A stretch of 64,000 nt of DNA from Candidatus Binatia bacterium (GTDB lineage: Bacteria > Desulfobacterota > Binatia > UBA9968 > JAJDTQ01), in contig OY762897.2 of the NCBI GenBank assembly GCA_963666515.2, forward strand, positions 2,752,001-2,816,000, in the 5' to 3' direction. Below are positions 5,413 to 59,032 of this stretch, one piece after another. The notes under the pieces were generated by a model. That model searched no databases and was not told the origin of the DNA. It saw only the letters and a program-made list of their open reading frames with translations. The translations under genes were made by a program, and so were the position numbers. Each line of letters opens with the position of its first letter. Positions within the stretch are counted from its first letter, which is position 1.

Positions 5413-5430
5413 CTTGCCGCCAGGAGCGCG

Positions 5431-6771: not shown

Positions 6772-7734
6772 CTACTGCGGCCTTAGCCGCTCGATGGTCG
6801 CGATGTAGTCCTTGATGCCGGCTTCGAGGTCGTAGGCCGGGGTGAAGCCCAGGTGCTCCTTGGCCTTGCTGATGTCGAAGATGCAGTAGCTCTTCTTCTC
6901 GGTCATGCGGAACTCCAGACCGGAGCTGATCTCGATCTTGCTGTCCGGATAGAGCCCGCCGAGGATGCGCTTGAAGTCGTGGAGCGTGACACCCACGCCG
7001 GTGCCGATGTTAAAGGTGCGCTCAGCCGGGTCCTTGACCTGAAGGCCCAGGATGATGGAGCGGGCCACGTCGCCCACGTAGAGGGCCTCGTTGGACTGGT
7101 CTCCACCCTCGGCCGAGAAGCCTTCTCCGGACATCACCTTCTCGATCATCTGGCCGTAGAGCGACAGCGCGCCGTGGCGCACTTCTTTGCCGGGACCGTA
7201 GATGGAGCCGAAGCGCAGCACCACCGAGCTGACGCCGTACTTCTTCTGGTAGTAGGTGCACAGGGTCTCGCAGCAGACCTTGATGGTGCCGTAGAGGTCC
7301 GCCGGGTTCTGGGGGTGCTCCTCGTTCACGGGCACGTAATCGGGGTAGGCATGTTTCCCGAAGATCTCGCCGTACACCGCCTTTGAGCTGGTGAACACCA
7401 CCCGCTCCAGGCCCCGGTGCCGCGCGATCTCCAGCACGTTGAGGGTTCCGTCCACGCCGACCTTGATGCCCAGCGCCGGGTCCGTCTCCGCCGGAATGGG
7501 CATCAGCGCGGCCAGATGGGCGACGTGGGTGATGCCGTTGTCGACGATGATCTTGTCCAGGCCCTCAGGGTCCAGGATATCCCCGATCACCAGGTCCACG
7601 TCCTTCTCGATATCCGAGATCAGCGAAGTGTCCATCCGGTTGTCCATCAGCACCGGCCGCACACCGTCCCGGATCAGATGCCTCGCGGTGACCGCGCCGT
7701 TGACGCCCATGCCGCCCGTGATCAGAATCTTCAT
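6772..7734 (-). CDS. NAD-dependent epimerase/dehydratase (extended SDR)
   Basis: ITGGMGVNG Rossmann motif, FTSS, YxxxK (YGTIK), LRFGSIYGPG. Confidence 0.88.
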   Translation of the reverse strand: MKILITGGMGVNGAVTARHLIRDGVRPVLMDNRMDTSLISDIEKDVDLVIGDILDPEGLDKIIVDNGITHVAHLAALMPIPAETDPALGIKVGVDGTLNVLEIARHRGLERVVFTSSKAVYGEIFGKHAYPDYVPVNEEHPQNPADLYGTIKVCCETLCTYYQKKYGVSSVVLRFGSIYGPGKEVRHGALSLYGQMIEKVMSGEGFSAEGGDQSNEALYVGDVARSIILGLQVKDPAERTFNIGTGVGVTLHDFKRILGGLYPDSKIEISSGLEFRMTEKKSYCIFDISKAKEHLGFTPAYDLEAGIKDYIATIERLRPQ

Positions 7735-7786
7735 GTGATGCCTCCGTCCCGCCCGTTTTCTTCGGGCGGATTGATTCGCGTTTGCG

Positions 7787-29330: not shown

Positions 29331-29345
29331 GGCGACAAACCTTCC

Positions 29346-30275
29346 TGAACCGCCCGGGGTTTCCCGGAGACGGAATAGTTTGAGTCAGGCCACCATGGCG
29401 GGCTCTTGGGACTGCTAATAGTAGGCCTCTTCGAGTTCTGCCGGCGGCACATAGTCGGCGGTGGTTGAACCAGTGGACCCATTCGAGGGTGGCGAACTCG
29501 ACCGCTTCGAGGTGACGCCAGGGGCCGCGTTGACGGATCACCTCGGTCTTGTACAGGCCGATGACGGACTCGGCCAGGGCGTTGTCGTAGGAGTCCCCGA
29601 CGCGGCCCACCGAGGGCTCGATCCCGGCCTCGGCCAGACGCTCGGTGTAGCGGATGGACACGTACTGGGCGCCACGGTCGCTGTGATGCACCAGAGCGTG
29701 CTCACGGCCCACCGCGCGCTCACAGAGGGCCTGATCAAGGGCGTCCAGGGCCAGTTCGGTGTGCAACGAGTTGGAGACGCATACGCCGGGCGTAGGCATC
29801 GACCACAAAGGCAACGTAGTCGAAGCCGCTCCATGTCGCCACATAGGTTAAGTCCGCCACCCACAACGCATTCGGGCGGCTGGCCTCGAACACCCGGTTC
29901 ACTCGGTCCGGTGGCCGGGTGAGTTCCTTCGCTGCCCGGGTCGTCTTCGTCCTTCGACCCCGAACCACGCCACGAAGCCCCAACTCTCCCATCAGCCGCG
30001 CCACCGTGCATCGGGCCACGGCAAGGCCCTCCCGGTGGAGTGCGCGCCATACCTTGCACACCCCGCCCGACGCACCCACTTGCGCAACGTCTCCGCCGTG
30101 CACCCAAGCTTCGACGCCACCGAGACCATGGCCGCCCACTGAGAATCGTGCTCCGCCTGGTGCTCCAGCACCAGCCGAACCGCTCTCTCCCGTACCTCCG
30201 GCGAATACCTCGTTGACTTTGTTCATGACTCCATCCTCTCAAGATTAGAGTCTCCGGGAAACCCGGGACGATTCA
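29346..30275 (-). mobile_element. IS3-family element, internally deleted and frameshifted (930 bp)
   Basis: Terminal IRs TGAACCGCCCGGGGTTTCCCGGAGAC / TGAATCGTCCCGGGTTTCCCGGAGAC; fragments PNALWVADLTY, HHSDRGAQY, DSYDNALAES. Confidence 0.9.
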
Positions 30276-31435
30276 CAAGCGATGATCCGGGCAGCGGTGG
30301 AGGCGGAGTTGGAGAGCTTTCTGGGAGGGCATGAGGGGGAGCGTGACGGGAGGGGGAGGTATTGACGGGGTTGGGGCCGGTGAAGGTACAGGTGCCGAAG
30401 ACACGGGACCGGGCGGGCAAGGGGCGGTGTTTTCGCTCGGAGTTGTTGCCGCCGTACTTGAGGAAGGCTCGGCGGGTGGAGGCGGTGGTGCCGTGGCTGT
30501 ATCTGAAGGGGATGTCGACGAACGACTTTGGGGAAGCGCTGGAGGCGTTGTTCGGGGGCGAGGTGAAGGGGCTGTCGCCGGCAGCGATCACGCGGATGAA
30601 GCGAGTGTGGGAGGAGCAGTACGAGGAGTGGCAGGAGCGGGACTGACACGGGCACGAGTTCGTGTACGTATGGGCGGACGGGATCTACGTGAACATCCGG
30701 CAGGAGGAGCGGCGTTGTATCCTGGTGGTGGTGGGCTGCGACATTCACGGACGCAAGCACTTCCTGGCTCTGGACGCTGGGTTTCGGGAGTCCTTGGAGA
30801 GTTGGAAAGCCCTTCTGTTGAGCCTCAGAGACCGTGGCGTCAAGGCGCCGAAGCTGGCGGTGGGTGACGGAGCGCTGGGGTTCTGGACGGCCCTGGCCGA
30901 AGTCTATCCCGAAACCCGCACCCAGCGCTGCTGGGTGCACAAGACCGCCAATGTCCTGGACAAGCTGCCCAAGCGCGTCCAGCCTGAAGCCAAGTCGATG
31001 ATCCACGACATCTGGATGGCCGATACTCGCAAAAGCGCCGAACAGGCCCTGGACCGTTTCTGTGGCACCTACGAAGCCAAGTACCCCAAGGCGGTGGACT
31101 GCCTGAGCCGCGACCGCGACACGTTGCTCACCTTCTATGACTTCCCCGCGGCCCACTGGCAGCATCTGCGTACCACCAACCCCATCGAGTCCACCTTCGC
31201 CACCATCCGGCTACGAACCGTGAAGACCCGGAACTGCCTCAGCGTCAAGACCGCCCTGAGCTTGGTGCACCAACTGGCCATGAGCGCTCAGAAGCGCTGG
31301 CGGCACCTCCGCGAGTTCGGTCAACTCGCCGACTTGGTCGCGAAGGTGAAGTTCGTGGATGGCATCGATGAAAGGGTGACCCGTAGGAAAGCCGCCTGAT
31401 TCAGCCCTGCCATACACCAGATTTGACAGTAGCTC
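30276..31435 (+). mobile_element. IS256-family element, 5' truncated and frameshifted
   Basis: LYLKGMST, YVWADGIY, GDGALGFW, QRCWVHK, LRTTNPIES; frameshift near 30645; 5' end cut by the adjacent IS3. Confidence 0.88.
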
Positions 31436-31463
31436 TCAGTCTAGGCTTCCGGCCAAAGGAGGG

Positions 31464-31497
31464 CCGCGGTGGACCTCATCGTCAAGGCCCACCGCGG
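31464..31497 (-). terminator. Hairpin downstream of the peptide operon
   Basis: CCGCGGTGG(g)CCT-loop-AGG(t)CCACCGCGG, about 60 bp after the stop at 31556. Confidence 0.5.
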
Positions 31498-31555
31498 AAA
31501 GGGGTGAACGATTAGGCGGGGACAAATGGCAAACAGGAAGCGTTGGCCATGGAGG

Positions 31556-31861
31556 TTACAGCGGGATCACCCCGCACGTGATCAAACATTTTGCGCAAAC
31601 AATGCCGCTAGGATCGACTAGGCACAAGGGTACACAAGGTATGCAGACGACGATACCAGCGACTTGCTCACTTGCGCTCACACAAGGGTTGGTGGGGACG
31701 GGGTGTGCACTTACCCTATCTCCGATGTAGTTGTCCTCGATGACGGAGACATGGTTATCGCCAACGGGATTGACGTTGGCCTCGGCGTTCCAGGCCACTA
31801 CAAAACTTAACGCCAGCACTACCAAGGCCTTGGCAACAATGATGTACGTGACCGCTTTCAT
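31556..31861 (-). CDS. Secreted Cys-rich peptide precursor B (101 aa)
   Basis: Signal peptide (…AWNAEA), spacer, core CIPCVPLC-x8-CAKCLITC; GGAGG RBS; ATGA overlap with the upstream gene; paralogous to 32693-32998. Confidence 0.8.
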   Translation of the reverse strand: MKAVTYIIVAKALVVLALSFVVAWNAEANVNPVGDNHVSVIEDNYIGDRVSAHPVPTNPCVSASEQVAGIVVCIPCVPLCLVDPSGIVCAKCLITCGVIPL

Positions 31862-32037
31862 GAATCCTCCCATTTCTCGTTGGGCCGTGACGAAGAAATC
31901 GCGAAACGTTCTGTTGGTGTCACGATGCTCTTCTCCGGTCCTTTAGCCAGCTCAACCATGGGTCCTGCCTGCACCGTAGCCGCAAGAGCTACGACCACCA
32001 CCAAGGCAGCCAACAGCATCTCGAAAAAACTCCTCAT
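31858..32037 (-). CDS. Small secreted protein (59 aa, below the ORF-track cutoff)
   Basis: Manual translation MRSFFEMLLAALVVVVALAATVQA|GPMVELAKGPEKSIVTPTERFAISSSRPNEKWEDS; GGAGG RBS; ATGA overlaps at both ends. Confidence 0.7.
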   Translation of the reverse strand: MRSFFEMLLAALVVVVALAATVQAGPMVELAKGPEKSIVTPTERFAISSSRPNEKWEDS

Positions 32038-32669
32038 TTCCGCTCCTCCATCTCCTCGCTAGTGCATCCAAAGATGGATCGAAAAGCTGCTGCATCTCGT
32101 CTGATCCGAAAATCGCCGTCCTGCCTAAGGTATCGGCGCACCTCAGGATCGGCCATCCACTCTGGACACCAGCACGTCATTGAAAGAACGGCTTCCTTCG
32201 CCGACTCCCGGTCGCCGCTGCCGTCCCGATCGGTATAGACGCTGATCACCGCCAAGTGAGTCAGTACGAACGCTGGGCAAGTGTCCCGCGCGGCAAGTGC
32301 AGCATCTAGCGCATCGTCGTATCTTCCGAGCGATTTGAGGACATTTGCACGATTGATCTGGATGCTTGCCTCGCTGAATCTGACCTTAGCCATGGCCGCA
32401 TCCAATACGTTGAGTGCGTTTCTCGGGTCACCGGCCCCGAAGTATGACAGAGCGACCTCGTTCAGGGCGCCCGCATCGCCCGCTACCTCGGAGGGTGGGC
32501 GGGCCTCAATCTCGGCGATCGCGGCCTCAAAATTACCGGACCGCCGATAGGCTTTTGACGCTTCGATGACTTCCCGCGGCATGCGGGAAGTATGCCGGAC
32601 GGGAAGACCGTTAGTTGAAACTCTAATGCGACGAATTTGGCCCTTGGTGTCACTGAACTGTTTCATCAT
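32034..32669 (-). CDS. TPR-repeat protein (211 aa)
   Basis: TPR-like helices (ALNEVALSYFGAGDPRNALNVLDAAM; INRANVLKSLGRYDDALDAALAA); GAGGAGG RBS before ATG 32669. Confidence 0.72.
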   Translation of the reverse strand: MMKQFSDTKGQIRRIRVSTNGLPVRHTSRMPREVIEASKAYRRSGNFEAAIAEIEARPPSEVAGDAGALNEVALSYFGAGDPRNALNVLDAAMAKVRFSEASIQINRANVLKSLGRYDDALDAALAARDTCPAFVLTHLAVISVYTDRDGSGDRESAKEAVLSMTCWCPEWMADPEVRRYLRQDGDFRIRRDAAAFRSIFGCTSEEMEERK

Positions 32670-32692
32670 CGGTAACCTCCTCGCGGAACTGT

Positions 32693-32998
32693 CTATATGG
32701 GCGTAACCGAGCAAGTCGCCAAACAGGCACCGCAAGCTACCCCACCACTAAGGTCGAAGAAACAGACCGGTATGCAGACTACGCAATCGAGGCCGACGAC
32801 TTGCTGGCCTCCCTTAACACAGGACTTGGCGGGGATACGCTGCTCGCTGCCCCCGTCGCTACTGTCGTTGTCCTCCATGACGGCCACGAGGTCATCACCA
32901 ACGGGGTTCACCCTACCCTCAACATTCCACGCTGCCAGCAAGCTCAACGCCAGCACCGCGATTGCCTTCGCGAGTATCATATACGTCGCCGCTTTCAT
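32693..32998 (-). CDS. Secreted Cys-rich peptide precursor A (101 aa)
   Basis: Signal peptide (…AWNVEG), acidic spacer, core CVVCIPVC-x9-CGACLATC; AGGAGG RBS. Confidence 0.8.
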   Translation of the reverse strand: MKAATYMILAKAIAVLALSLLAAWNVEGRVNPVGDDLVAVMEDNDSSDGGSEQRIPAKSCVKGGQQVVGLDCVVCIPVCFFDLSGGVACGACLATCSVTPI

Positions 32999-33121
32999 AT
33001 GCTCCTCCTTTTCCTTTACGTTCGGTTTTACTGAGGTGATCCTGGATACAGCTGAACGGGCACCCGGTCTCGGCGGTCAGTGTACCGTGCCGCCGTGACG
33101 GTTGTTGACCCTCTTACGTTG

Positions 33122-33310
33122 CTACGGCGTGGGAAGCCACGCGATGACCGCCGCGGCTACGGAAGCGGTCACCGCCACCGCGGGCATTGCTGGTGCAGCC
33201 GCCACAGCAACGCCGATCAATGCGAGGCCAGCCAGGGGACCAGCAAGAGCAGCGGCCGGAACCGCTACTACGCAAAAGGCACCGAGCATCAGACTCAATA
33301 GCAATTTCAT
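33122..33310 (-). CDS. Small hydrophobic secreted peptide (62 aa)
   Basis: AAGGAG RBS; signal peptide ending AALA|GPL; mature part GPLAGLALIGVAVAAAPAMPAVAVTASVAAAVIAWLPTP has no charged residue. Confidence 0.72.
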   Translation of the reverse strand: MKLLLSLMLGAFCVVAVPAAALAGPLAGLALIGVAVAAAPAMPAVAVTASVAAAVIAWLPTP

Positions 33311-33409
33311 GGCGATTTCTCCTTTATGCAGGTTAACGACTTGGTTTTCCAGGATCACCTCTCACAGTGGTTAAGCGGTGCCCGTTGACATCGCAGATTT
33401 CGCCTGAAC

Positions 33410-34267
33410 CTAGGGCTTGCGACAAAGGTTTCCATCTGATACTCGCCCGAGCGCTTGTACTGTAGCGAAAAGATCACGGCGGCACGTCTCCTTCGACACT
33501 CCTAGCGTATCCTTAATCGCCTTTTCTGCTGCACGGAGCTCTGTACGAATTGTTTCCACTGACACGTCGAGAGTCTTCGCGACGGTCTTTGCGGCGACGC
33601 GACAACCAACCTCAAAACCAAGACGACTAATCTCGTCCGCAGTCCCACGATCTAGCAACTCCGTGGAAACTCCCTTGCGCAAGATCAGGACAACGAGTCG
33701 GCGCTGCGGCATGGATCGAAGTACGCTCCGAATCCTCCGCCGAAGCTCCCTCTGAATCCGCGGATCATGCCGTTTGTATTCTTCCCGTTCGATGTGCACG
33801 TCCTCAGGCGAAGCAGTCTTCAACTTGTCAACCGCCTCGGCTTGAATCGGCACCATCCGACCCTGATTTCTGAGGACGCCGGCTACGATTCCTGGACCTG
33901 TCGGGCTTCCCAACAGCGCTTTCAGGCCACCAGCAAGGCCAGGGCCAGCTTGAAAGGTGAACTTCGGCAACGGCCGAGACAGACCGAGTTCCTCCACATC
34001 GCCTCCCGAGGCTGCGTGTACAATCCCCCAAGCCAGGTAGATTGCGTCGCTAACGACTTCGTCAGGGTCGGCGACGCCAAACCTCCTAGCATTTTCGACG
34101 AGCTTGGGCCGCTCTCGTTCCACGATCTTGTCAAAGAGCTTCCAGAGCCGCATCCGCTCTCCCTGCCGAAGAGTACTTGCCTTCGAATACAACCGCAGGA
34201 ACTCGTCCTCGTCGCTGCCGGTCGGCCCAGCCTGCACGGCAATCCTACGTTTTGCGATTTCATGCAT
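33410..34267 (-). CDS. Divergent sigma-70/ECF-like RNA polymerase sigma factor
   Basis: Region-2-like LFDKIVERERPKLVENARRFGVADPDEVVSDAIYLAW; region-4-like LRSMPQRRLVVLILR...KTVAKTLDVSVETIRTELRAAEKAIK; AAGGAGG RBS. Confidence 0.7.
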   Translation of the reverse strand: MHEIAKRRIAVQAGPTGSDEDEFLRLYSKASTLRQGERMRLWKLFDKIVERERPKLVENARRFGVADPDEVVSDAIYLAWGIVHAASGGDVEELGLSRPLPKFTFQAGPGLAGGLKALLGSPTGPGIVAGVLRNQGRMVPIQAEAVDKLKTASPEDVHIEREEYKRHDPRIQRELRRRIRSVLRSMPQRRLVVLILRKGVSTELLDRGTADEISRLGFEVGCRVAAKTVAKTLDVSVETIRTELRAAEKAIKDTLGVSKETCRRDLFATVQALGRVSDGNLCRKP

Positions 34268-34702
34268 CAGGCTCCCTCCTTTTCAGATTTCGCGGAAGAT
34301 TGTGGCACAGTAGGTGTGAAATGAGTGTGACCACGATGGGTACATCGGTGACACTCGCGGCATTGGTCCGTGCCGAAGCTGTGCCGGGAGTTGAAGGCGT
34401 TCCGAAGCCGGGCTACGAGGCGCATGCTCGAAGGGAACATTCACCACGGGAGCGAAGACGGTCGTTGGCGTTGGGGCCGCATCGCGGAGATGCGACGGGC
34501 CGAGTTCAGTTGCCTAGGAGTCTGCCCCGTAGAAAAGCCGACATGGGAGGGGGCATTAAGAGAGGAGAGAGAAGGCAAGGCGAGGAAGGAGGGGGGAGTG
34601 CCGACGAGCTAGCGAGCGTATGAACCTGGACAGACTGAGGTGGTCCCGGAAAATCGGACAGGTTGCTAAGGTGTATTCCACCGACGGAAGGAGGGATACG
34701 CG

Positions 34703-34984
34703 ATGAGCACACGGAGACGGTTCAGCGGGGACTTCAAGGCGAAGGTAGCCCTGGAGGCGCTGAGGGGGGACAAGACGATCCAGGAGATCGCGACCCGGCA
34801 CAAGGTCCACCCGAACCAGGTGAGCGCCTGGAAACAGCGGGCGGTGGAAGGGATGAAGGAGGTCTTCAGCAAGGGGACGGAGCGGACTCGTGGGGACCAC
34901 GAGACGGAGATCCGCGACCAGCACGCGAAGATCGGGGAGTTGACGGTGGAGCGGGATTTTTTAGCCAGAGGGCTCAAGTGGTGA
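34703..34984 (+). CDS. IS3-family transposase OrfA (HTH)
   Basis: RRRFSGDFKAKVALEALRGDKTIQEIATRHKVHPNQVSAWK...KIGELTVERDFL. Confidence 0.88.
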   Translation: MSTRRRFSGDFKAKVALEALRGDKTIQEIATRHKVHPNQVSAWKQRAVEGMKEVFSKGTERTRGDHETEIRDQHAKIGELTVERDFLARGLKW

Positions 34985-35371
34985 GCCGGGAGGAGCGCCG
35001 GGCGATGATCGAGCCCGGCCATCCCAAGCTCAGCTTGAGCCGTCAATGCCGCCTGCTTCGCGTGAGCCGTTCGTCTGTGTACCACACCCCCAAGGGCGAG
35101 AGCGCGGAGAATCTGGCGCTGATGCGGCGGATCGATGAGTTGTTTCTCAACTACCCGTTCTACGGCAGCCGCCAGATGGCCCGTCATCTGTGGCGGGAAG
35201 GCGTGCGGGTGGGGCGTCACCGGGTGCGGCGTCTGATGCGCTTGATGGGCCTACAGGCCATCTACCAAGCGCCCCGGACCACTACCCGCCATTCCTCAGC
35301 ACCGGGTCTGTCCCTACCTTCTCAAGGGGCTTGCCATCGAACGGCCCAATCACGTGTGGTGCGCCGACATC
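34981..35371 (+). pseudogene. IS-A OrfB, 5' part (frameshifted, intron-interrupted)
   Basis: LSLSRQCRLLRVSRSSVY...PFYGSRQM...RVRRLMRLMGL; frameshift near 35295; ends WCADI. Confidence 0.82.
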
Positions 35372-37499
35372 GAGCGCCACGAGGCGTTCTTGAACCTTGC
35401 GGTGGTGAGAGACCACCGCCGTCAGCCTGTCGCAGCAGGCTGAATGAAGCTGAGGGCAGCCCGACCCGAGGGACATCGGCAAGGGTGGAAGCAGCCCTGA
35501 CAACGACGGGACGCGCCAGCACTGTCAGATGGCGTGGGTCCGGCAAGCGAGACGGAAAGGTGTACGCGAGGAACCAGCGGCGGAAAGCCCCTAAAGCGCG
35601 AACCACCAGCTCCAACCTGACAGATAAGGGCTGGGTTGCAACGCACACCCGACGGGTCTGGCCGGTCGGGGAACTCCTGGGCTGGTAGATGTCGCCAGCA
35701 GGGAGGCCATGGTGAAGGACTGCGGCGTAGCCGTGGCGAAGTTGCAGGGGCATAGCTGGGCACCGACCCCGTTGAAGGGTTCGAGAGTGAACGTGGGAAC
35801 CACTCCGTTGGTCCCTGCCAACTTGGTGGGGAAGACCTGTCGCCGGTTGATGTCGGCGGAGTGGGGCGGAGGACCCGTAGTAGTCTGGGCACGGGAAAGC
35901 CGTGTACATGGCGAAGGGGTCCAGTGTGCTCACGGCTTCAACGCAAAACGAGGAGGACGCTGGTGAATACCGGTGCTTCATGGCTTGGTCCGATCGAGGC
36001 TGAGTCACGAGTACTTGCGATGCAGACGAAGCTGAACCGTTGGGCGGCAGCCGATCCCGGCCGTCGCTTCGATGACCTGTACAACCTCGTCTATGATCCG
36101 GCGTTTCTCGTTACGGCGTGGCGTCGGGTGCGGGGAAACAAGGGCGCACGAACCGCTGGCGTCGATGGAGTAGCACCGCGGTCCATCGGCTCCGGTACGA
36201 AGACACTGCTGGCTGGGTTGAGAGAAATACTCAAGGCCCGCCGGTTTGTGCCGCAACGGGTGCGGGAGAAGACGATCCCGAAGGCGGGCGACAAAGTCCG
36301 CTCGCTGGGTATTCCGACGACCGCAGACCGGGTCGTGCAAGCTTCCTTGAAGCTGGTGCTCGAGCCTATCTTCGAGGCGGACTTCAAGCCGTGTTCCTAT
36401 GGCTTCCGTCCGAAGCGCCGTGCAAAGGACGCCATCGCCGAGATTCACTACCTCGCCTCACCAACCCGGAATTATCACTGGGTCTTCGAGGCGGACATCA
36501 AGGCGTGCTTCGATGAGATCGACCACACGGGCCGGATGGAACGGGTGCGACATCGAATCGCGGACAAGCGTATCCTGAGCTTGGTCAAGGCGTTTCTCAA
36601 GGCCGGCGTCCTCTGTGAGGACCAAACCAGCCGCGAAACGATCACCGGCACTCCCCAAGGCGGAATCCTCTCACCGCTACTCGCCAACATCGCCTTGTCC
36701 ATCCTGGACGAGCACTTTACCCGGAGGTGGGATTCCCTCGGTCCGTCATGGACCCGCATCAAGCGTCGTCGCGCCGGAGAACCGGTGATGCGGCTCGTCC
36801 GCTATGCGGATGACTTCGTGGTCCTGGTCCACGGGACCCGACAAGACGCCGAAGCGCTCTGGAATGAGGTGACGGCGGTTCTCGCTCCGATCAGTCTACG
36901 GCTGTCGGAAGAGAAAACGAGAGTCTGTCACGTAGACGAGGGGTTCGACTTCCTCGGCTGGCGTATCCAGCGCCGGAACCGCAGGGGGCAACATGGCAGG
37001 AAGGCTATCTACACCTACCCGTCGAAAAAGGCGCTTGTCTCGATCATCGGGAGGGTCCGCAAGCTGACCCGCCGTGCATCTCATCGAACGCTTGCAGCCC
37101 TGTTGCGCCGGCTCAACCCGGTGTTGCGAGGCTGGTGCAACTATTTCCGGCACGGGGTGTCGTCACGGACGTTCAACTACGTCGACCATTTCGCCTTCTG
37201 GCGTATCGTCGGCTGGCTCCGGAAACGACATCTCGGGCTGAGCATGCATACCTTGGTGAGACGCTTTCTTCCTGGCTGGACGATTCGTGAAGGCGGTGTC
37301 AAGCTGCTTCGCCCGTCCAAAATTGCCGTTGAACGCTATCGGTTCCGGGGCAACCGGATCCCAACACCTTGGCCAAGCACTCCGACGGCATGAGCACATG
37401 GAGAGCCGGATGCGGTGAGAGTCGCACGTCCGGTTCGGAGGGCGGGCCGGAGAAACCCATCGCTCGAAAGACGACAGGGCGCTCCCGTCCGACCCCTAC
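35372..37499 (+). mobile_element. Group II intron (intron 1), apparently full length
   Basis: 5' end GAGCG (canonical GUGYG); RT ORF; domain V GAGCCGGATGCGGTGAGAGTCGCACGTCCGGTTC at 37403-37436; domain VI ending CCCCTAC. Confidence 0.88.
35963..37393 (+). CDS. ltrA: Group II intron reverse transcriptase/maturase (no endonuclease domain)
   Basis: NKGARTAGVDG, LGIPTTADRVVQ, SYGFRP, EADIKACFD, GTPQGGILSPLLANI, RYADD, GFDFLG, LNPVLRGWCNYF; GAGGAGG RBS before GTG 35963. Confidence 0.93.
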   Translation: MNTGASWLGPIEAESRVLAMQTKLNRWAAADPGRRFDDLYNLVYDPAFLVTAWRRVRGNKGARTAGVDGVAPRSIGSGTKTLLAGLREILKARRFVPQRVREKTIPKAGDKVRSLGIPTTADRVVQASLKLVLEPIFEADFKPCSYGFRPKRRAKDAIAEIHYLASPTRNYHWVFEADIKACFDEIDHTGRMERVRHRIADKRILSLVKAFLKAGVLCEDQTSRETITGTPQGGILSPLLANIALSILDEHFTRRWDSLGPSWTRIKRRRAGEPVMRLVRYADDFVVLVHGTRQDAEALWNEVTAVLAPISLRLSEEKTRVCHVDEGFDFLGWRIQRRNRRGQHGRKAIYTYPSKKALVSIIGRVRKLTRRASHRTLAALLRRLNPVLRGWCNYFRHGVSSRTFNYVDHFAFWRIVGWLRKRHLGLSMHTLVRRFLPGWTIREGGVKLLRPSKIAVERYRFRGNRIPTPWPSTPTA

Positions 37500-38158
37500 A
37501 CGTACGTGCCGACCTGGACGGGGTTCGTGTACTTGGCCATGGTGCTCGACGTGTTCAGCCGCAAGGTCGTGGGGTGGGCCATGGCTGGTCATCTTCGTAC
37601 CGAACTGGTGCTCGCAGCGCTCAACATGGCCATCGGACAGCGCCGCCCCACAGAGGTGGTCCATCATTCCGACAAGGGCTCCCAGTACACCTCGCTGGCC
37701 TTCGGCAAGCGCTGCCGCCAGATGGGAGTGCTGACCTCCACCGGGTCGGCCGGGGATTGCTACGACAACGCCATGGCCAAGAGCTTCTTCGCCACCCTGG
37801 AGTGCGAGCTGATCAAGCGGCAGGCGTTCCACACCCAGGCTGAGGCACGCATGGCCGTCTTCCAGTTCATCGAGGGCTGGTACAACACCCGACGCCGGCA
37901 CTCCGCCCTGGGCTACCTGAGCCCCAACGACTTTGAGCGCGCCGCTGCGGCGGCTGGGGCGCGTCCTGAGGGCGACAGTGGCCCGGACCAGGAGACCGAC
38001 CCTGTCGTCTTCCTGATCCCCGAGCCGGATGTCCATGACCGCCCTCCGGGGCTACCCTATCCCTCGGCAATGGGGAACGCTATGTTTCCAACGGCTGTCG
38101 CGCACCTCAGTGCTGGTGCACACAGCCCTCAACTGTCCACTGAAATGGGGTAACGCCA
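37500..38158 (+). mobile_element. 3' half of a second, different IS3-family element ('IS-B') with its right IR
   Basis: TYVPTWTGFVYLAMVLDVFSRKVVGW...HSDKGSQY...CYDNA...YNTRRRHSALGYLSP; terminus ...ACTGTCCACTGAAATGGGGTAACGCCA. Confidence 0.85.
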
Positions 38159-38340
38159 GGGAGGCATTCGAGCGAATCAAGCAAGAGAATCCGTTGCCGC
38201 GCCCGAAGCTGAGGCTGTCCTATACGGAGCTTCAGCGATGCGCGGTGCTGTGAATCAATCTCTGAAGAGCGCCGTGCGGGAAATCCGCATGCGGCGTTCT
38301 GTGGGAGCCGGAGGCGGGCGACCGCCTTCGGCGACCCGGT
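38159..38340 (+). mobile_element. 3' remnant of a second, distinct group II intron (RT tail plus domains V-VI)
   Basis: (W)EAFERIKQENPLPRPKL...stop 38253; domain V GAGCGCCGTGCGGGAAATCCGCATGCGGCGTTC; domain VI ending GACCCGGT. Confidence 0.78.
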
Positions 38341-38395
38341 GGCCGGAGAAACCCATCGCTCGAAAGACGACAGGGCGCTCCGGTCCGACCCCTAC
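38341..38395 (+). repeat. Second copy of intron 1 domain VI
   Basis: 54/55 identical to 37445-37499. Confidence 0.92.
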
Positions 38396-38940
38396 ACCTA
38401 CATCCCCGTCCAGAAGGGCTTCCTGTACCGGGTGGCCATCATGGACTGGGCCACCCGCCGGGTGCTCTCTTGGCGGCTGTCCAACACTCTCGATGCCGGC
38501 TTCTGCACAGAGGCCCTCTTAGACTTAGAAGCCCCGGAGCGCTACGGCCGGCCCGAAATCTTCAACATCGACCAGGGCAGCCAGTTCACCAGCCTGGAGT
38601 TCACCTCCGTGCTCAAAGACTCAGGGGTTGCCATCTCCATGGATGGCAGGGCCGCTGCCTGGACAACACCTTCATCGAGCGCCTGTGGCGTTCGCTCAAG
38701 TACGAGGCCGTCTACCTCCACGAACTCTCTGACGGATTCCAGGCCAAGCGGGTGACCTCAAGCTGGGTCGCCTTTTACAATTCCGAGCGTCCTCACTCTG
38801 CCCTGGCCGGTTTCACCCCTGCCGAGGCATACGACCACGGACTGCCCACCGAGACCCGGACCAAGCCTCACCGCCCACCCGCGTCTCTCCCGGCTCCACC
38901 GGAACACCAGGACGTGTTAAACAGGACTCTGGCGGCATGA
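38396..38940 (+). pseudogene. IS-A OrfB, 3' part (integrase core, frameshifted)
   Basis: TYIPVQKGFLY...DWATRRVLSW...DQGSQFTS...DNTFIERLWRSLKYE...YNSERPHSAL. Confidence 0.85.
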
Positions 38941-39133
38941 TCTTATGTTCGGGTATACACCTTATTTCTGCCGCCTCCCTGTCCTACAAACCAGGACCAC
39001 ATCAAGGACCTGTCACAGAAAAGGGCCGCGGAGTCACAGATTTATCACAGTTCTTGTGATTAAATTTGTTGGGTGGGTTGTCTTGCTGGACCGATTGACA
39101 ACCGTTAAGGCGTTGATGGAGGACATTGACAGT

Positions 39134-39274
39134 ATGAAACCTATCACCAGTGTTCTTGGATTGGTGCTGTTGTCCGTCACCGTGACTTTGGCAGCATGGG
39201 CCCATCCGGGGCCCACCAATAGCGACGGTTGTCACGTGGACCCTGAGACCGGGCATTATCATTGCCACCCTTGA
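39134..39274 (+). CDS. Minimal secreted YHYH-domain-like protein (46 aa)
   Basis: Signal peptide ending AWA|HPGPTNSDGCHVDPETGHYHCHP; GGAGG upstream. Confidence 0.72.
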   Translation: MKPITSVLGLVLLSVTVTLAAWAHPGPTNSDGCHVDPETGHYHCHP

Positions 39275-39286
39275 GGACCGCGCGTC

Positions 39287-40078
39287 ATGAGTAACACCTA
39301 CCGCGTATTTTACTTCGAAGACGACGAGACCGTGGCGAACCCTCTCACGGCCTTCCTGGAAAAGCCGGTGCATGGCCCAACCCTAAAAGTGATCCACCAC
39401 GCCGACGCTACGCGTGCCAAAATTGCAATTGATCAGTGGAGTGACCCCCACCCTCCTCATGTGGTGCTTCTCGATCGCCACCAGAATGGCTACACGAATG
39501 CGGGAATCGACATCTGCAAGAAGGTCAAGACGAAATGGCCATCGACTCCTGTTGTCTTTCTCAGTGACCTCGCGGGGATACATGAACAGATCGAGGGCTT
39601 CGAGGTGCAAGCGAACGTCTACCTGCCAAAAGCTGCTCTGCTCAACGAACCCGACCACAAAGAACTCATACAAAAAGTTCTTCTCGCACAGATAATCAGG
39701 GACCCGGAGCCAAACCCGTCCGAGTATATGAACGGGAGCTTGCGTGTCAACAAAGGACGTCCGGCATTGTGGTGGCGCGATAAGGAACTCAACCTGAGTC
39801 CAGATAACATAGCCATCGTCGACGAATTGGCGAGTCTAAAGAAAAGGGGAGACACACGCATGTACATGGATTTAGCCATCGCCGGAGATCTCCGGGGGGA
39901 CGATGCGTATCTCAGGGACAATCTGAGAAAGCATATCCAGAATATACGGAGAGCTTTTCAGGAGGTTGACGAGGATTTCACTCAAGCCTGCAAGGACAAA
40001 CGCCACGGCATCATCGCAGTGCCGCAAAGAGGTTATAAGTGGGTAACCGACATATTATCTGAAGCCGCCGATGAGTGA
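39287..40078 (+). CDS. Response regulator (REC plus OmpR-like winged helix)
   Basis: FEDD, VLLD (phospho-Asp), GIDICKKV, PVVFLS, YLPK; C-terminal RKHIQNIRR...IIAVPQRGYKW. Confidence 0.88.
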   Translation: MSNTYRVFYFEDDETVANPLTAFLEKPVHGPTLKVIHHADATRAKIAIDQWSDPHPPHVVLLDRHQNGYTNAGIDICKKVKTKWPSTPVVFLSDLAGIHEQIEGFEVQANVYLPKAALLNEPDHKELIQKVLLAQIIRDPEPNPSEYMNGSLRVNKGRPALWWRDKELNLSPDNIAIVDELASLKKRGDTRMYMDLAIAGDLRGDDAYLRDNLRKHIQNIRRAFQEVDEDFTQACKDKRHGIIAVPQRGYKWVTDILSEAADE

Positions 40079-42198
40079 CGTCCTGCGTCAGCAGCACTCA
40101 TTGTCACAGGGAGTCTGAAAATAAACTTAACCCCTGTATTGTCAGGTAGGTTTTCGAGTTGACATGTGCCGCCATAGGCCATCACGATCTTTCTCGTAAG
40201 GAAAAGCCCCAAGCCCTGGTGTTCCTTGTCCCGTTCTCCCGCATTGCGGCGTAAGCTGTTTTCGCCGGCGCTATCATAGCTTGTACCGAGGTCGAAGACC
40301 TGAGCTAGCTTCTCGGTTTCAACCGTTTGTCCGCTATTGGACACCGTAAGAACCGCCTGCGGTGACCCGCTATCCTCGCCAACAACATCCAGCCGTACAA
40401 CTATTTTGCTATTTTTCGGATCTCGTCGCTCCCCGGCATTTGCAATAACTTTCTCCAAAGCTTGTCTGAAATAGTGGTCCGGGTTGTTTGGGAGACCTGT
40501 CGCGCCTAGAAACGGGCGACTGTCTCCCCCGTGACAGATACGGAAGTCAATGTTCTCCACCACATTCTCGTGTTCGTCGTTGTCCGAGAAGAACTCCACC
40601 ACCTCCGCGACGGAATCCGACAGGTCAAAGCTAGCTGGCCTGTGGTACTCGATTTCCTTGCGAACAACCTTATCGTAATTAAATGTCTCCCCCGACGTCC
40701 ACAAGCGTTGCATAACGTCTTCGACGCATTTTTCTATTTGACTGAGTCGCGTCCCATCACCTTCGGAGAGTCGACGAGCATCTGCAGGTATGCGACCCAG
40801 TGTACGCCTTGCTTCGTGTTGGAAGGTGTCGGCATACGAGTTAATATCCTTATTGGTCTGTTCGAGCCTCTCGTTGGTCCTCTCTAGGCTGTCGTTCACT
40901 TCTTGAAGACTCCTGCTGGCACGTCTTCGGCGTCGCTCCACATAGTAGACCAGGGAAGCCAGCAAAATAATTACGCCCATGACTACGACGGAGTCCTTGC
41001 CAAAGAGGATCGGAATCGGTTCTTCCACAACCACAGCAACAGGAACGTTTGTCCCGACCATCAAAATTTCTCTGTGTATCCGTAAGCGGTATACCCCTCC
41101 AACACCGAGAAAACACATACCCGGCCCCTCTTGACACTCGTCAATTCCAGCGAAATAGAACGCGGAGGAATAAAGAGGCGACAGCAGTAAAGCCCACGGG
41201 CTACTCACAACCGTAACTGTCCTGTTCTTTGGTTTTCTGGTCCTTGACAACACGTAGTTGCCGCGTCGGATCTCATAGTACCAAAAAAGATAACGCAGAT
41301 ACTTAACGATCGGATATGAGTCGATCTCGTCAAACAGCGGCAGCGGCCTGCCGGTTCCAATCCGGTTAGTGGCAGTCTCCGTTCCTATTGACACAACCAA
41401 CTCAACAGCGTCGGCCGGACACTTCTGGACGGCTAGCTCAAGAAACCAATCCTTTTCTGACTGGTCAAGTCTCCACCACCTTCCATTCACAACTGCGTCG
41501 CCACACACAGTGGCTTTCCGACGCTCACGGTCGGTATCTTCGTCGGCCCAGTAATCGGGGTTAAGTAGCTTAAAATCCCCATTGTCCTGAAACAAGAGGC
41601 GAAAGGTCTTCTCTTCCAACTGGTCATTGTGCACCGTCAACCTCATGACGACATGGTCACGAGGGTTCGGCGTCATCACTAAATGGCCCAGGATGTAAAG
41701 GGGGCCTGCATTGCGGTCATTGGCGAACCGCAATCTGAAATCAGGCCTGACATCAAATACGTCGCTTAGTGACGCACTATCGTAGAAACTCAGCGTGTTG
41801 GCCAAATAAGGCGTGACAGCTGTACCATATGACGGCTCCTCATATTTAAAGTTATCGTAGAGCCAGGATCCGGGATTCTCGTCATCATGACTAACTATTA
41901 ATTTCTTTTGCCCCACGGCATGGTCATGCATCTTCTTCCAATCCGCCACGGACATGTCGCCGACATCGATCCTGAAGGGCTTCGGATCGTAGACAAACAG
42001 AAAAGTCCGAACAACTCTGTGTTTGAGGGCGTTCGTATTCTCAACAAGCTTCTGCAGCGTGTTCGCTCTGTCTTCCACTCGTTGTCTTGTATTCGAAACG
42101 GAATTCGTCGTCGCCCAAAGAAACGTCATCATCGCGCTCGCGAAGAGCACCGCCGTAACCATGAACGGATTCCTCGTCACCGACTTTATCAACAACAC
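40033..42198 (-). CDS. Membrane sensor histidine kinase with a large extracytoplasmic domain
   Basis: N-terminal TM, about 400-aa periplasmic region, second TM, coiled coil, H-box FQHEARRTL, N-box EKVIANA, VSNSG, VFD, GLGLF; GGAGG RBS before GTG 42198 (the ORF-track extension to 43581 is an off-frame shadow of the antiporter gene). Confidence 0.82.
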   Translation of the reverse strand: MLLIKSVTRNPFMVTAVLFASAMMTFLWATTNSVSNTRQRVEDRANTLQKLVENTNALKHRVVRTFLFVYDPKPFRIDVGDMSVADWKKMHDHAVGQKKLIVSHDDENPGSWLYDNFKYEEPSYGTAVTPYLANTLSFYDSASLSDVFDVRPDFRLRFANDRNAGPLYILGHLVMTPNPRDHVVMRLTVHNDQLEEKTFRLLFQDNGDFKLLNPDYWADEDTDRERRKATVCGDAVVNGRWWRLDQSEKDWFLELAVQKCPADAVELVVSIGTETATNRIGTGRPLPLFDEIDSYPIVKYLRYLFWYYEIRRGNYVLSRTRKPKNRTVTVVSSPWALLLSPLYSSAFYFAGIDECQEGPGMCFLGVGGVYRLRIHREILMVGTNVPVAVVVEEPIPILFGKDSVVVMGVIILLASLVYYVERRRRRASRSLQEVNDSLERTNERLEQTNKDINSYADTFQHEARRTLGRIPADARRLSEGDGTRLSQIEKCVEDVMQRLWTSGETFNYDKVVRKEIEYHRPASFDLSDSVAEVVEFFSDNDEHENVVENIDFRICHGGDSRPFLGATGLPNNPDHYFRQALEKVIANAGERRDPKNSKIVVRLDVVGEDSGSPQAVLTVSNSGQTVETEKLAQVFDLGTSYDSAGENSLRRNAGERDKEHQGLGLFLTRKIVMAYGGTCQLENLPDNTGVKFIFRLPVTMSAADAGRHSSAASDNMSVTHL

Positions 42199-44222
42199 TC
42201 GGTCCTCCCTCTTTTCTGGTCTTCTTCCCCGTCCGGGGGCGGCGCCGTGAGGAGCTGCACGGCCCGGTCCAGGTCGGCGTGGCTGCCGAGCAGGACGAGG
42301 ATGTCGTTCGGCTGCAGCCGGTAGTCCATGGGCGGGCTCTCCACCGAGACGCCGTACCGGACCAGCGCCAGCACGCTGGTCCTTCCCTGGAAGTGATCCT
42401 TCAGGTCGCCGATGGTGTAGTGCGCCCCGGGCGCATCCTCCTGCACCAGGAACGTGTCCGCGGTGGCGCCGGTGAGGAACTGGTTGAAACGGGCCAGGCT
42501 CTTGCCTTCCAGCCTCAGCCCGCGCAACATGCTGTAGCCTTCCCGGCGCACCAGCTCCACCTGCATGGTGATGACGTTGCGCGGCACGTGGTACTCCTGC
42601 AGGACCCGCGCGAAGATCTCCACCGAAGTCTCGAACTCCTCCGGTATGACCTCGTTGGCGCCCAGGCGCGTCAACCGCGCGATCTCGGCCACGTATCGTG
42701 TCCGGACGATGATGTAGAGGTCGGGATTGAGCCTCCGGGCGTGCGCGACCACGCGCGACGTCGCCGCCGGGTCGCTGATGGCCGCCACCAGCACGCGCGC
42801 CCGCGCCACCCCCGCGGCGGCGAGAACCGCCGGACGGGTGGCGTCGCCGAACTCGACCGGCTCGCCTTCGTCCTCGACCTGCCGCGAAACATCCGGGTTC
42901 AGGTCCAGTATCCGGTGAGGGATGTCCACCTCCCGCAGCACCCGGGCCAGGTTCCGCCCGTTGACCCCGTAGCCCACGATGATGACGTGCCCGGTCATCT
43001 CGCCGGCGGACGGCCCTTCGGCCTTGCCGCCGCGGTCCAGCGCGAACCCCAGGCGCCCTCCGCCGAGGATCAGCAAGGGGGTCACCAGCATGCTGAGAAT
43101 GGCGGTTGCGAGGAAGAGCTGCTCCTGGTCCGGCGACAGGATCTCGAAAGCGCTGCCCATGCGCGCGAGGATGAGCGAGAACTCGCCCACCTGGGCCAGC
43201 GTCAGGCCCAGCAGCAGGCCGAGACGGAACGAACGCTGCAGAAACGAGAAGATGGCGGTGACCAGGCCTCCCTTGATGAGCACCAGCAACAGCCACGCCG
43301 CGCCGATCAGGGTAAATTGCTCGCCCACGAAGCCGACTTCCACCTGCATTCCCAGGGAGATGAAGAAGATGCCGGCAAAGCTGTCCCTCAGCGGGAGGAT
43401 GTCGGCGATCACCTGGTGGCTGTACTCCGAATCGGAGATCAGCAGACCGGCAACGAACGCCCCCAGGGCGAGCGAGATGCCGGACTGGAACGCCAGCCAA
43501 GCGGTGCCGAGACAGATGAGCAGCACGCAGAGGAGAAAGATCTCCTGATTCCGCAGGCGGGCCACCTGGTGGAGGAACCACGGCACGACGAAACGCGCCG
43601 CCACGAAGATCAGGGCCACCGCCAGCACCGCTTTTCCCAGCGTGAGCCCCACCACCTGGAGGGAGAACGCCTCGGTCTCCCCTAGCACCGGCACCGACAG
43701 CATCATGGGCACGGCGACGATGTCCTGGAGCAGCAGCGTGCCCACCGCGAGCCGGCCGTGAAGGGACGACAGTTCGTCGCGGTCGCTCAGGATCTTGAGC
43801 ACGATGGCGGTGCTGCTGAGGGACGCCAGCAGCCCGAAGAAGAAGCTGAGGCCGGGGGAAAACCCCAGGTAGAGGCCAATCGCGGTCACCACAAAGACGG
43901 TGAGGCCGACCTGCAGCAGGCCGCCGGTGATGATCAACCCCCTTACCGCCATGAACCGCTCGAAGGAGAATTCCAGGCCGATGGAGAAGAGCAGCAGCAC
44001 GATGCCGATCTCCGCGAGGATCTCCAGCTCGTGCCCGTGGCCGATGACGCTGAAGCCGTGCGGCCCCATGATGACGCCCACCGCAAGAAAGCCGATGACC
44101 GTGGGGAGCCGCAGCTTGTGGAAGGCGAAGACCGTGGCCACCGTGAGGGCCAGGACGGTCACGAGACTCGTGAGGACGTTGAGCATGCCGCGTTCCGAAA
44201 GGGAAACCGCGCGGTGTTTCAC
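42189..44222 (-). CDS. CPA2 cation:proton antiporter (KefB/KefC-like) with TrkA-N and TrkA-C domains
   Basis: LAEIGIVLLLFSIGLE, LSSTAIVLK, LLLQDI, LAQVGEFS, IIVGYGVNGR, GDAT; start may be ATG 44186. Confidence 0.92.
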   Translation of the reverse strand: MKHRAVSLSERGMLNVLTSLVTVLALTVATVFAFHKLRLPTVIGFLAVGVIMGPHGFSVIGHGHELEILAEIGIVLLLFSIGLEFSFERFMAVRGLIITGGLLQVGLTVFVVTAIGLYLGFSPGLSFFFGLLASLSSTAIVLKILSDRDELSSLHGRLAVGTLLLQDIVAVPMMLSVPVLGETEAFSLQVVGLTLGKAVLAVALIFVAARFVVPWFLHQVARLRNQEIFLLCVLLICLGTAWLAFQSGISLALGAFVAGLLISDSEYSHQVIADILPLRDSFAGIFFISLGMQVEVGFVGEQFTLIGAAWLLLVLIKGGLVTAIFSFLQRSFRLGLLLGLTLAQVGEFSLILARMGSAFEILSPDQEQLFLATAILSMLVTPLLILGGGRLGFALDRGGKAEGPSAGEMTGHVIIVGYGVNGRNLARVLREVDIPHRILDLNPDVSRQVEDEGEPVEFGDATRPAVLAAAGVARARVLVAAISDPAATSRVVAHARRLNPDLYIIVRTRYVAEIARLTRLGANEVIPEEFETSVEIFARVLQEYHVPRNVITMQVELVRREGYSMLRGLRLEGKSLARFNQFLTGATADTFLVQEDAPGAHYTIGDLKDHFQGRTSVLALVRYGVSVESPPMDYRLQPNDILVLLGSHADLDRAVQLLTAPPPDGEEDQKRGRTECC

Positions 44223-58981: not shown

Positions 58982-59032
58982 GAGACTATCCTTTCCACGC
59001 CTGCCCAAGTCAGTGGCACTGGCTCTCTATAA

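Follow-up and report, generated by a model that had tools for sequence, protein, structure and literature searches.

What kind of system is encoded by a small gene block that combines a sigma-factor-like gene with two cysteine-rich paralogues, and does it belong to any system already described? The block occupies positions 31556-34267 on the minus strand of a 64-kb stretch of the Candidatus Binatia bacterium genome (contig OY762897.2, positions 2,752,001 to 2,816,000; 64,000 nucleotides, hereafter the window). An earlier note on this DNA, made from the letters alone, had proposed a mobile cassette in which a dedicated sigma factor drives the production of secreted peptides. Our answer centres on the two paralogues, A and B, which belong to a family of eight sequences that recurs as a pair, together with a sigma factor gene of the extracytoplasmic function (ECF) type, in a second genome. 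The reading that we favour, at somewhat less than an even chance, is that the block is a horizontally acquired module bounded by insertion sequences (IS), in which a sigma-type regulator accompanies two exported paralogues that would be disulfide-stapled hydrophobic hairpins paired at the envelope.

All six minus-strand open reading frames (ORFs) were found with intact frames at the positions first noted. From the upstream end they encode a sigma-70/ECF-like protein of 285 aa (33410-34267), a 62-aa hydrophobic protein that is rich in Ala, Val and Pro and has a signal-like N-terminus (33122-33310), Cys-rich protein A (32693-32998), a cytoplasmic tetratricopeptide repeat (TPR) protein of 211 aa (32034-32669), a 59-aa protein whose N-terminus is signal-like and whose tail is hydrophilic (31858-32037), and Cys-rich protein B (31556-31861). 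A and B are both 101 aa in length and 51% identical; in A, a signal-like helix is followed by an acidic linker and a C-terminal twin CxxCxxxC hairpin. The TPR gene is taken to start at an ATG behind a ribosome-binding site (RBS); the listed TTG start (233 aa) would overlap A. A Shine-Dalgarno site of the GGAG/GGAGG type lies 3-9 nt upstream of each of the six starts, and ATGA overlaps couple the 59-aa ORF to both the TPR gene and B. A GC-rich hairpin of 14 bp (31464-31497, minus strand) follows 59 nt 3' of B; the surrounding 112 nt fold at -40.9 kcal/mol (z -2.83), as well as which only 1 of 200 shuffles folds. The hairpin is likely a terminator with a weak U tract; it lacks a T run, and a simple terminator scan reported none in the block. 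The GC content of the block is 0.55-0.58 (0.54-0.64 per gene), compared with 0.658 for the genome. Pfam, NCBIfam, PHROGs and PADLOC place no anti-sigma, maturase, ABC or peptidase domain in any of the six ORFs. The earlier note had listed a clear RBS for each gene, the coupling of the last three genes, the hairpin, the low GC content and the lack of an anti-sigma factor, RiPP (ribosomally synthesized and post-translationally modified peptide) maturase, ABC exporter or peptidase, and on each of these counts the DNA agrees with it. Gene calls in the protein libraries include the sigma-like protein (P0002), A (P0001), B (P0005) and the TPR protein (P0004), all at the same lengths. A further ORF of 57 aa (34267-34440) meets the sigma-like start through a TGATG overlap and encodes a C-xx-C-xx-C-x-H-xx-H stretch; with flat GC at the three codon positions (0.55/0.57/0.60) and no RBS it is probably not a gene, and it was rejected.

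A and B are protein genes under selection, now or recently. Between them, the proportion of differing synonymous sites (pS) is 0.68, which is saturated, that of nonsynonymous sites (pN) is 0.26 and dN/dS is 0.18, with 25, 23 and 59 differences per 100 codons at codon positions 1, 2 and 3, respectively; the supposition that they are real genes under purifying selection is thus borne out. Relatives are few. A word-indexed protein search with A recovered A itself only (1 of 4 candidates), and a profile built from A and B and run against 1.84 billion representatives returned six proteins at E≤0.001: B itself (P0005, identical), four metagenomic proteins (P0006-P0009; 85-105 aa, E 2.9e-11 to 8.1e-4) with the same architecture as A and B, and P0010. 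The last is a 503-aa repetitive protein matched only at profile positions 44-79, and was left out of all alignments.

The same profile was used to search genomes at increasing phylogenetic distance; these genome sets overlap, and in the large draws the best 12 first-look candidates per genome were scored. The profile found the family in 0 of 27 other genomes of the genus and 0 of 122 other genomes of the order, and found no real member among 400 genomes of the phylum, where a match of 19.2 bits in G323 was rejected (its translation has neither the motif nor a start). Among 400 genomes of the class, a single genome, G672 (89% complete, from a family other than that of the window genome), gave two matches 1 kb apart. 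Their E values were 3.0e-5 and 9.2e-4; after inclusion in the profile they became 1.6e-28 and 1.0e-25, which is circular. A, B, P0006-P0009 and the two G672 paralogues make up the eight-member family.

The G672 locus (L067) is compact. The first paralogue (8238-8582), followed by a hairpin, precedes a gene for an ECF sigma factor (8746-9258) that scores 76.4 bits against TIGR02937 (cut-off 42.9) and 60.7 bits against Sigma70_r4_2, and the second paralogue (9273-9635) begins 14 nt after the sigma gene. Downstream lie two overlapping ORFs of ~350 aa and 332 aa (the latter with multiple transmembrane segments) that match no family. The module sits in a patch of GC 0.49-0.53 between flanks of 0.57-0.62, and modules of this type occur sporadically, in 1 of 55 genomes of the family to which G672 belongs. 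The two G672 paralogues are 49% identical (pS 0.77, pN 0.34), with 42, 31 and 70 differences at the three codon positions over 107 codons, and purifying selection has therefore acted on both paralogue pairs, in the window and in G672. Directly upstream of the module, on the opposite strand (7148-7929), are an ORF of the TumE toxin family (134 aa) and one with an HVO_A0114/MarR-like helix-turn-helix (HTH; 126 aa); this pair, too, points to a mobile or accessory region.

Both loci with readable context (2 of 2) share a core: two divergent paralogues and a gene for an ECF-type sigma factor or a sigma-like protein, in a low-GC islet. This count covers the window and G672 loci, to the exclusion of the neighbourhoods of P0003, P0006-P0009 and P0011. 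The remaining genes differ between the two loci. Neither the sigma-like profile nor the TPR protein of the window matches anything in G672, nothing like the 62-aa or 59-aa ORFs was seen in the ORF list of its locus, and the window genome in turn has no match to the ~350-aa ORF of G672. The sigma proteins of the window and of G672 align weakly, in region 4 only (probability 2%), and the two genes are not detectably orthologous by sequence. A recurring neighbourhood of sigma factor, peptides and TPR protein, which had been put forward as a test of the system, was consequently found in part: the sigma gene and the paired peptides are there in G672, but the TPR protein was not found and no counterparts of the small ORFs were seen.

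All eight family members are built alike, with a hydrophobic N-terminal helix containing internal Lys/Arg, a variable linker and a hydrophobic C-terminal core; A and B both have the signal-like helix, linker and C-terminal motif that characterize this twin-CxxCxxxC exported family. Small residues at -3/-1 follow the N-terminal helix in 8 of 8 members when read by eye (AEA, AGA, ANA, VEG, VFA, AHA). The linker is acidic or Pro-rich, with a net charge of -2 to -8. The core of ~32 residues (grand average of hydropathy 1.35-1.99, charge 0 to -2) follows the pattern G-(L/I)-D-C-xx-C-xxx-C, a DP(S/T)G-like turn, C-xx-C-(L)-xx-C and a terminal x-x-(T/S)-P-(I/V/L); B has V-V-C in place of (L/I)-D-C. 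Seven positions (G69, C72, C75, C79, C89, C96 and P100) are invariant in all eight sequences. Exactly seven Cys follow residue 30 in 7 of the 8 members (one has six), the seventh being a linker Cys of varying position. As to the signal peptides first described for the small proteins, hydropathy and the -3/-1 residues indicate signal-like N-termini, a weaker statement than the original one.

An AlphaFold2 (AF2) model of A based on a six-row alignment predicts a helix at residues 2-26, disorder at 28-67 and two further helices at 70-81 and 87-98, with a predicted local distance difference test (pLDDT) score of 71-77. With an i, i+3, i+7 spacing, the Cys triplet of either predicted helix would line up on a single face, and the simplest reading of the model is a helical hairpin held by as many as three disulfide staples. 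None of the six family members scanned matched a Pfam or NCBIfam model, and the protein atlas offered no usable match for A. The literature that we searched on helical-hairpin or disulfide-containing bacteriocins and on CxxCxxxC, the coverage of which did not extend to neighbour lists of ECF groups, does not describe the family or its motif; the CxxCxxxC papers found concern Fe-S proteins, SufB, RdhB and similar. As judged by sequence, the family is rare, unnamed and in no library searched.

The regulator in the window is more divergent than that of G672. Profile comparisons make the 285-aa protein weakly sigma-like and, with moderate confidence, assign it a region-4 HTH carrying an insertion. 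Its TIGR02937 match (E 4.8e-6, residues 148-253 on profile positions 85-163) reaches 26.3 bits against a cut-off of 42.9, and among weak Pfam HTH matches Sigma70_r4_2 reaches 12.2 bits against a cut-off of 25.7, so that the protein as a whole falls below both thresholds for membership in the sigma-70 family. Profile alignment with hhalign against the seven sigma-70-family proteins of the same genome gives a probability of 82.8% (E 9.4e-6), confined to region 4 and with a 16-residue insertion; against 22 ECF sequences from relatives the probability is 82.7%. With the greedy setting, the latter alignment becomes collinear over the whole ECF length (residues 44-255 vs. 1-165), and its region-2 part (residues 44-140 vs. 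ECF positions 1-80) is of low confidence. The stretch DPDEVVSDAIYLAW in this protein resembles the pattern seen in ECF region 2.2. The description of the gene as sigma-70/ECF-like therefore stands for region 4, on TIGR02937 and hhalign, but region 2 is absent from the Pfam results and the score lies under the cut-off. The only homologue among 5839 scored candidates is P0003 (280 aa, 71% identity, on a 25,218-bp contig); none was found in 40 relatives, and the 400 phylum genomes gave a single match of 19.3 bits, inside a 544-aa frame of G263. A PDB sequence search with the sigma-like profile returned a designed repeat protein and RuvB only, with weak scores, and the atlas neighbours are unnamed clusters, a few with 10-12% Sigma70_r4 members and some mostly viral. 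As for a class I anti-sigma partner, none of the small ORFs encodes a cytoplasmic domain before its hydrophobic helix. In the window genome (4.67 Mb), seven sigma-70-family proteins pass the TIGR02937 cut-off, two of them of ECF length; with so small a sigma repertoire, the sigma-like gene of the cassette would be a notable addition.

Each of the three likely transcription units carries a shared element of 12-17 nt. Copy 1 (34634-34650, minus strand) lies 366 nt upstream of the sigma-like gene and matches copy 3 at 15 of 17 positions in the same orientation; copy 2 (33348-33361, plus strand) is inverted and lies 37 nt upstream of the 62-aa ORF; copy 3 (33030-33046, minus strand) lies 31-36 nt upstream of A. 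Copies 2 and 3 form a perfect 14-nt inverted repeat around the 62-aa ORF. The exact 12-mer occurs twice in the 64-kb window (copies 2 and 3) and 8 times in the 4.67-Mb genome, and the score of the local alignment between the regions upstream of the sigma-like gene and of A was reached by 1 of 500 shuffles. An interpretation of the element as an ECF-like -35/-10 promoter was dropped, its spacing to the start codons being too short.

Where would A and B go? The earlier note called the small proteins secreted. The window genome encodes an Omp85/BamA match and two DSBA-family matches, and Sec export of A and B would be expected to lead to the periplasm; because Omp85 marks the host as having an outer membrane and no exporter is encoded in the block, a periplasmic or envelope location is likelier than secretion, and the term "secreted" is doubtful. 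The better of the two DSBA-family matches (G000:C1:3385665-3386204) has one in-frame TGA, which could reflect a pseudogene, a sequencing error or a recoded codon.

A periplasmic destination also fits an unlikely alternative, in which the block is an envelope module for thiol, metal or redox stress: a stress-responsive ECF sigma factor would turn on helical, Cys-lined proteins of the periplasm whose task is to buffer oxidants or thiophilic metals, and A and B would not be stapled effectors. Cu(I)-storing helical bundles lined with Cys exist, and 6-7 conserved Cys are predicted to fall on one face of the two helices in A and B. In this diderm host no export route leads further than the periplasm, and ECF sigma factors typically serve envelope stress (PMC8999054, PMC7826278). 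However, the mature parts of the proteins are almost devoid of His and Met, the helix surfaces are very hydrophobic, and neither locus contains a metal-related domain or transporter. Sec export to an oxidising compartment with DSBA proteins also favours disulfides.

The genomic setting of the block indicates how it arrived. The cassette lies in a strain-specific insertion of 12.9 kb (29331-42239) between glnA and a conserved right flank, together with IS debris and a low-GC pair resembling a response regulator and a histidine kinase. Its unique core (31223-34670, minus strand) has repeated IS sequence at both edges. To the left are an IS3 fragment (29346-30275, with 26-nt inverted ends) and a split IS256/Mutator transposase (30362-31399); to the right are an IS3 element that begins at 34663 and is broken by a group II intron (reverse transcriptase/maturase, 35861-37393; domain V/VI, 37401-37499), a second intron 3' end (38265-38340) and a further IS3 fragment (38341-38940). 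The flanking IS elements mentioned in the earlier note are therefore real. The IS elements on the two sides come from different families, and a composite transposon was rejected on that ground. The junction of intron and IS3 contains an 88-nt direct repeat (37445-37532 vs. 38341-38428, 86%), and both the IS3 and the intron have many copies in relatives of the genus, especially in G012.

A 19.9-kb DNA query was compared with 12 relatives from the genus. The end of glnA adjoins the right flank in 7 of the 12, with gaps of ~27-153 nt; in another three the gene before glnA adjoins it, the glnA copy being missing there. G002 has ~8 kb of other DNA at the site, and in G008 the flanks are 12 kb apart and inverted. 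For 31436-34635, no match was listed in any of the 12. The site thus looks like an insertion hotspot in the genus, and the cassette is foreign cargo within it, given its low GC content, its IS bounds and the insertion at this site in 0 of the 12 relatives. Four metagenome runs from one study (2023-2025) each yielded one contig (3443-3452 nt) spanning 31218/31223-34665/34670, identical to the window with 0 differing letters and ending in the IS repeats. Searches of plasmids and phages by tblastn gave no match, searches for related loci in genome, metagenome and viral contigs found none, Rfam identified no RNA family inside the cassette, and no tRNA gene lies close by. The proposal of a mobile cassette holds insofar as the DNA is foreign, associated with mobile elements, IS-bounded and low in GC, but the six-gene architecture does not recur as a unit.

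The same surroundings suggest that the block could be decaying cargo: a fragment left behind by a larger mobile element (phage, integrative and conjugative element, or plasmid) that has been trimmed by IS activity and is neither expressed nor useful. The IS graveyard with its nested insertions and truncated transposases, the uniqueness of the block to the window genome among the genomes searched, and the mostly viral membership of some unnamed atlas clusters near the sigma-like protein all point this way. We nevertheless consider such decay improbable, since all six frames are uninterrupted and retain their RBS and coupling, four runs over 2023-2025 gave an identical sequence, the paralogue pair has been under past purifying selection, the core recurs intact in G672, and no PHROG, phage or plasmid match was found.

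The TPR protein was correctly recognized in the earlier note, with TPR_2 and TPR_14 scores (32.8 and 33.1 bits) above the Pfam gathering cut-offs (27 and 23.5 bits, respectively), and no window of its hydropathy profile exceeds 1.8. It has no homologues among 1413 candidates, and a PDB sequence search returned generic or designed TPRs. A predicted complex of the TPR and sigma-like proteins scored 0.00, which counts neither as support nor as counter-evidence. The 62-aa ORF has hydropathy windows above 1.8 spanning residues 1-60, and its product is probably a small membrane protein; the 59-aa ORF has an N-terminal hydropathy window of up to 2.97 and, by eye, a putative VQA|G cleavage site. Neither small ORF matches a family in Pfam, NCBIfam, PHROGs or PADLOC.

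The coupling of the 59-aa and TPR genes raises the question of an RRNPP-like signalling system, in which the TPR protein would be the receptor for a re-imported fragment of the 59-aa propeptide and would control the sigma-like regulator. As set out in PMC10075063, such systems comprise a propeptide of 10-100 aa, Sec secretion, a TPR receptor of 250-500 aa and direct adjacency of the two genes. Four of the five features in that source are present or plausible here (small propeptide, putative Sec-type N-terminus, TPRs and adjacency), and, according to PMC8999054, TPR modules of ~200 residues regulate ECF42 sigma factors. As in the Rap-Phr type, a small ORF directly follows the TPR gene; in the block this is the 59-aa ORF, which has a putative Sec-type N-terminus and overlaps the TPR gene by 4 nt. 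Yet the receptor, at 211 aa, is shorter than the stated range, RRNPP systems are described in Firmicutes and their elements whereas the host here is a diderm non-Firmicute, the TPR gene is not detectably conserved, the pair was not found in the G672 locus, where nothing like the 59-aa ORF was seen, and the block encodes no Opp-type importer. We therefore regard this explanation as quite improbable. Least probable is that A and B are RiPP precursors whose modifying enzyme is encoded at another site or was removed where IS elements now bound the block: their cores are rich in Cys, Ser and Thr after an acidic, leader-like stretch and the block may be truncated by IS elements, but Sec-type signal peptides with small -3/-1 residues (8 of 8 by eye) are unusual for RiPP leaders, neither locus has a maturase, peptidase or ABC gene, and the six members scanned match no NCBIfam or Pfam precursor model.

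Several known systems resemble the block in part, and the A/B family is a member of none of those compared. In Streptomyces, the ECF sigma factor BldN drives the chaplins and rodlins, hydrophobic surface proteins of small size that are secreted. The chaplin domain contains two Cys, and chaplins belong to a genome-wide regulon. This system is the closest in logic, as it too links an ECF-type sigma factor to small, Sec-exported, hydrophobic, Cys-containing paralogues. There is no sequence relation, however, and here the proteins have a twin CxxCxxxC hairpin and their genes lie beside the sigma gene in a compact mobile cassette. ECF42 sigma factors carry a fused C-terminal TPR domain of ~200 residues (PMC8999054, PMC7826278) and likewise pair an ECF-type sigma factor that has no anti-sigma factor with a TPR module of this size that could regulate it by protein contacts. 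In the window, by contrast, the TPR protein is encoded by a separate gene, three genes downstream, which is not conserved in the G672 locus.

Two-peptide and Sec-dependent class II bacteriocins are unmodified, have Sec signal peptides, act as paired peptides and are accompanied by a small immunity ORF. The block is similar in that two related Sec-type proteins are co-encoded, no dedicated ABC exporter is needed and the 62-aa ORF could encode an immunity protein. It differs in the seven Cys, the outer-membrane host, the lack of any sequence relation and the charge of the mature parts, which are anionic to neutral, class II bacteriocins being cationic; linker plus core is net negative in 8 of 8 family members. 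RiPP precursors (of lanthi-, sacti-, ranthipeptides and others) have a cognate maturase, and no such enzyme is encoded in the window block or the G672 locus. Glycocins and the twin-Cx9C/Cx3C CHCH proteins are cystine-stapled helix-loop-helix structures, and so are the plant alpha-hairpinins with CxxxC...CxxxC, the subject of PMC4695807 and PMC5507927. As in these peptides, paired Cys motifs on two predicted antiparallel helices could staple a hairpin, but in A and B the motif is CxxCxxxC, present twice, and the proteins are bacterial and apparently Sec-exported, with hydrophobic helix surfaces and no glycosyltransferase. The roles first suggested for the peptides (antimicrobial or signalling) and for an immunity factor remain guesses; the mature parts are acidic to neutral and not cationic.

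In the favoured reading, that of an acquired sigma-type regulator with two exported, disulfide-stapled paralogues, the sigma-like protein would switch on the 62-aa gene and the operon of A, the TPR gene, the 59-aa gene and B, and the 12-17-nt element upstream of all three units would be a candidate control site. A and B would be exported by Sec and cleaved after the small -3/-1 residues. In the periplasm, the C-terminal domain would fold into a helix-turn-helix hairpin with opposed Cys faces and up to three disulfide staples, leaving the seventh Cys for a further link, perhaps between A and B. The hydrophobic hairpins might then function as a pair embedded in or attached to the envelope or membrane, either against competitors or on the surface of the producer. 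The TPR, 62-aa and 59-aa ORFs would be lineage-specific accessories (regulator or chaperone, immunity or anchor) outside the conserved core. More speculatively, A and B may found a new class that no described class of bacteriocin, RiPP or hydrophobin covers: paired, unmodified and outwardly hydrophobic hairpins with three disulfides and a seventh Cys for covalent pairing, travelling on mobile low-GC islets with their own ECF-type sigma factor and forming, in diderms, a two-component agent (a toxin or a surface modifier) that is active at the membrane or envelope. We regard this last proposal as tentative and rather unlikely as a whole.

A number of observations weigh against the favoured reading. 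On the side of the regulator, Pfam finds no Sigma70_r2 in the 285-aa protein at E≤1, its AF2 model is unusable (pLDDT 41.6), and, with a score below the curated cut-off, it is a putative rather than a proven sigma factor. The inverted copy of the shared element suggests an operator or an RNA or DNA inverted repeat rather than an asymmetric sigma promoter, and a scan for sigma-70-type promoters on the minus strand found none. The link, seen in two loci only, joins a peptide family to a type of regulator, and the contigs of the five metagenomic relatives differ in length from the 25,218-bp contig of P0003. On the side of the proteins, the hairpin model is of moderate confidence and the disulfides are putative; a PDB fold search with the model of A gave 0 matches, and the window genome has no DsbB match. 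Most membrane-active bacteriocins differ in charge from the predicted mature parts, which are anionic to neutral, and the host is diderm, with no outer-membrane export route in the block. Finally, the sequencing runs that contain the stretch are the four contig runs of one study, none of them RNA.

Other features of the window lie outside the cassette. The lowest GC content of the island (0.51-0.53) is at 39287-42200, where a response-regulator receiver gene (39287-40078) is convergent with a long ORF that has a C-terminal HATPase_c domain (from 40033 upward); no match to this stretch was listed in the genus relatives. A second low-GC patch (2560-6675, GC 0.57-0.60) encodes a 950-aa DNA methylase (N6_N4_Mtase) and, on the opposite strand, an ORF of a PLD-like nuclease family, and may be a restriction or defence islet. 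Two giant minus-strand ORFs (46814-59008, 4064 aa; 59992-63912, 1306 aa) consist of Calx-beta repeats, and their repetitive sections have a strongly negative GC skew (-0.33 to -0.40).

The annotation of bacterial genomes has a blind spot for small, exported proteins rich in Cys. The family described here numbers about 8 sequences among ~1.8 billion representatives and ~1,100 genomes, yet it shows selection, a conserved motif and a repeated partnership with ECF-type sigma genes on mobile DNA. Should the hairpin model prove false, the block would be one more orphan islet in an IS hotspot. If the hairpin-disulfide model is true, A and B would represent a novel scaffold, compact and genetically encoded, that brings its own switch, and would extend the cargo of ECF sigma factors without anti-sigma partners to a new type.

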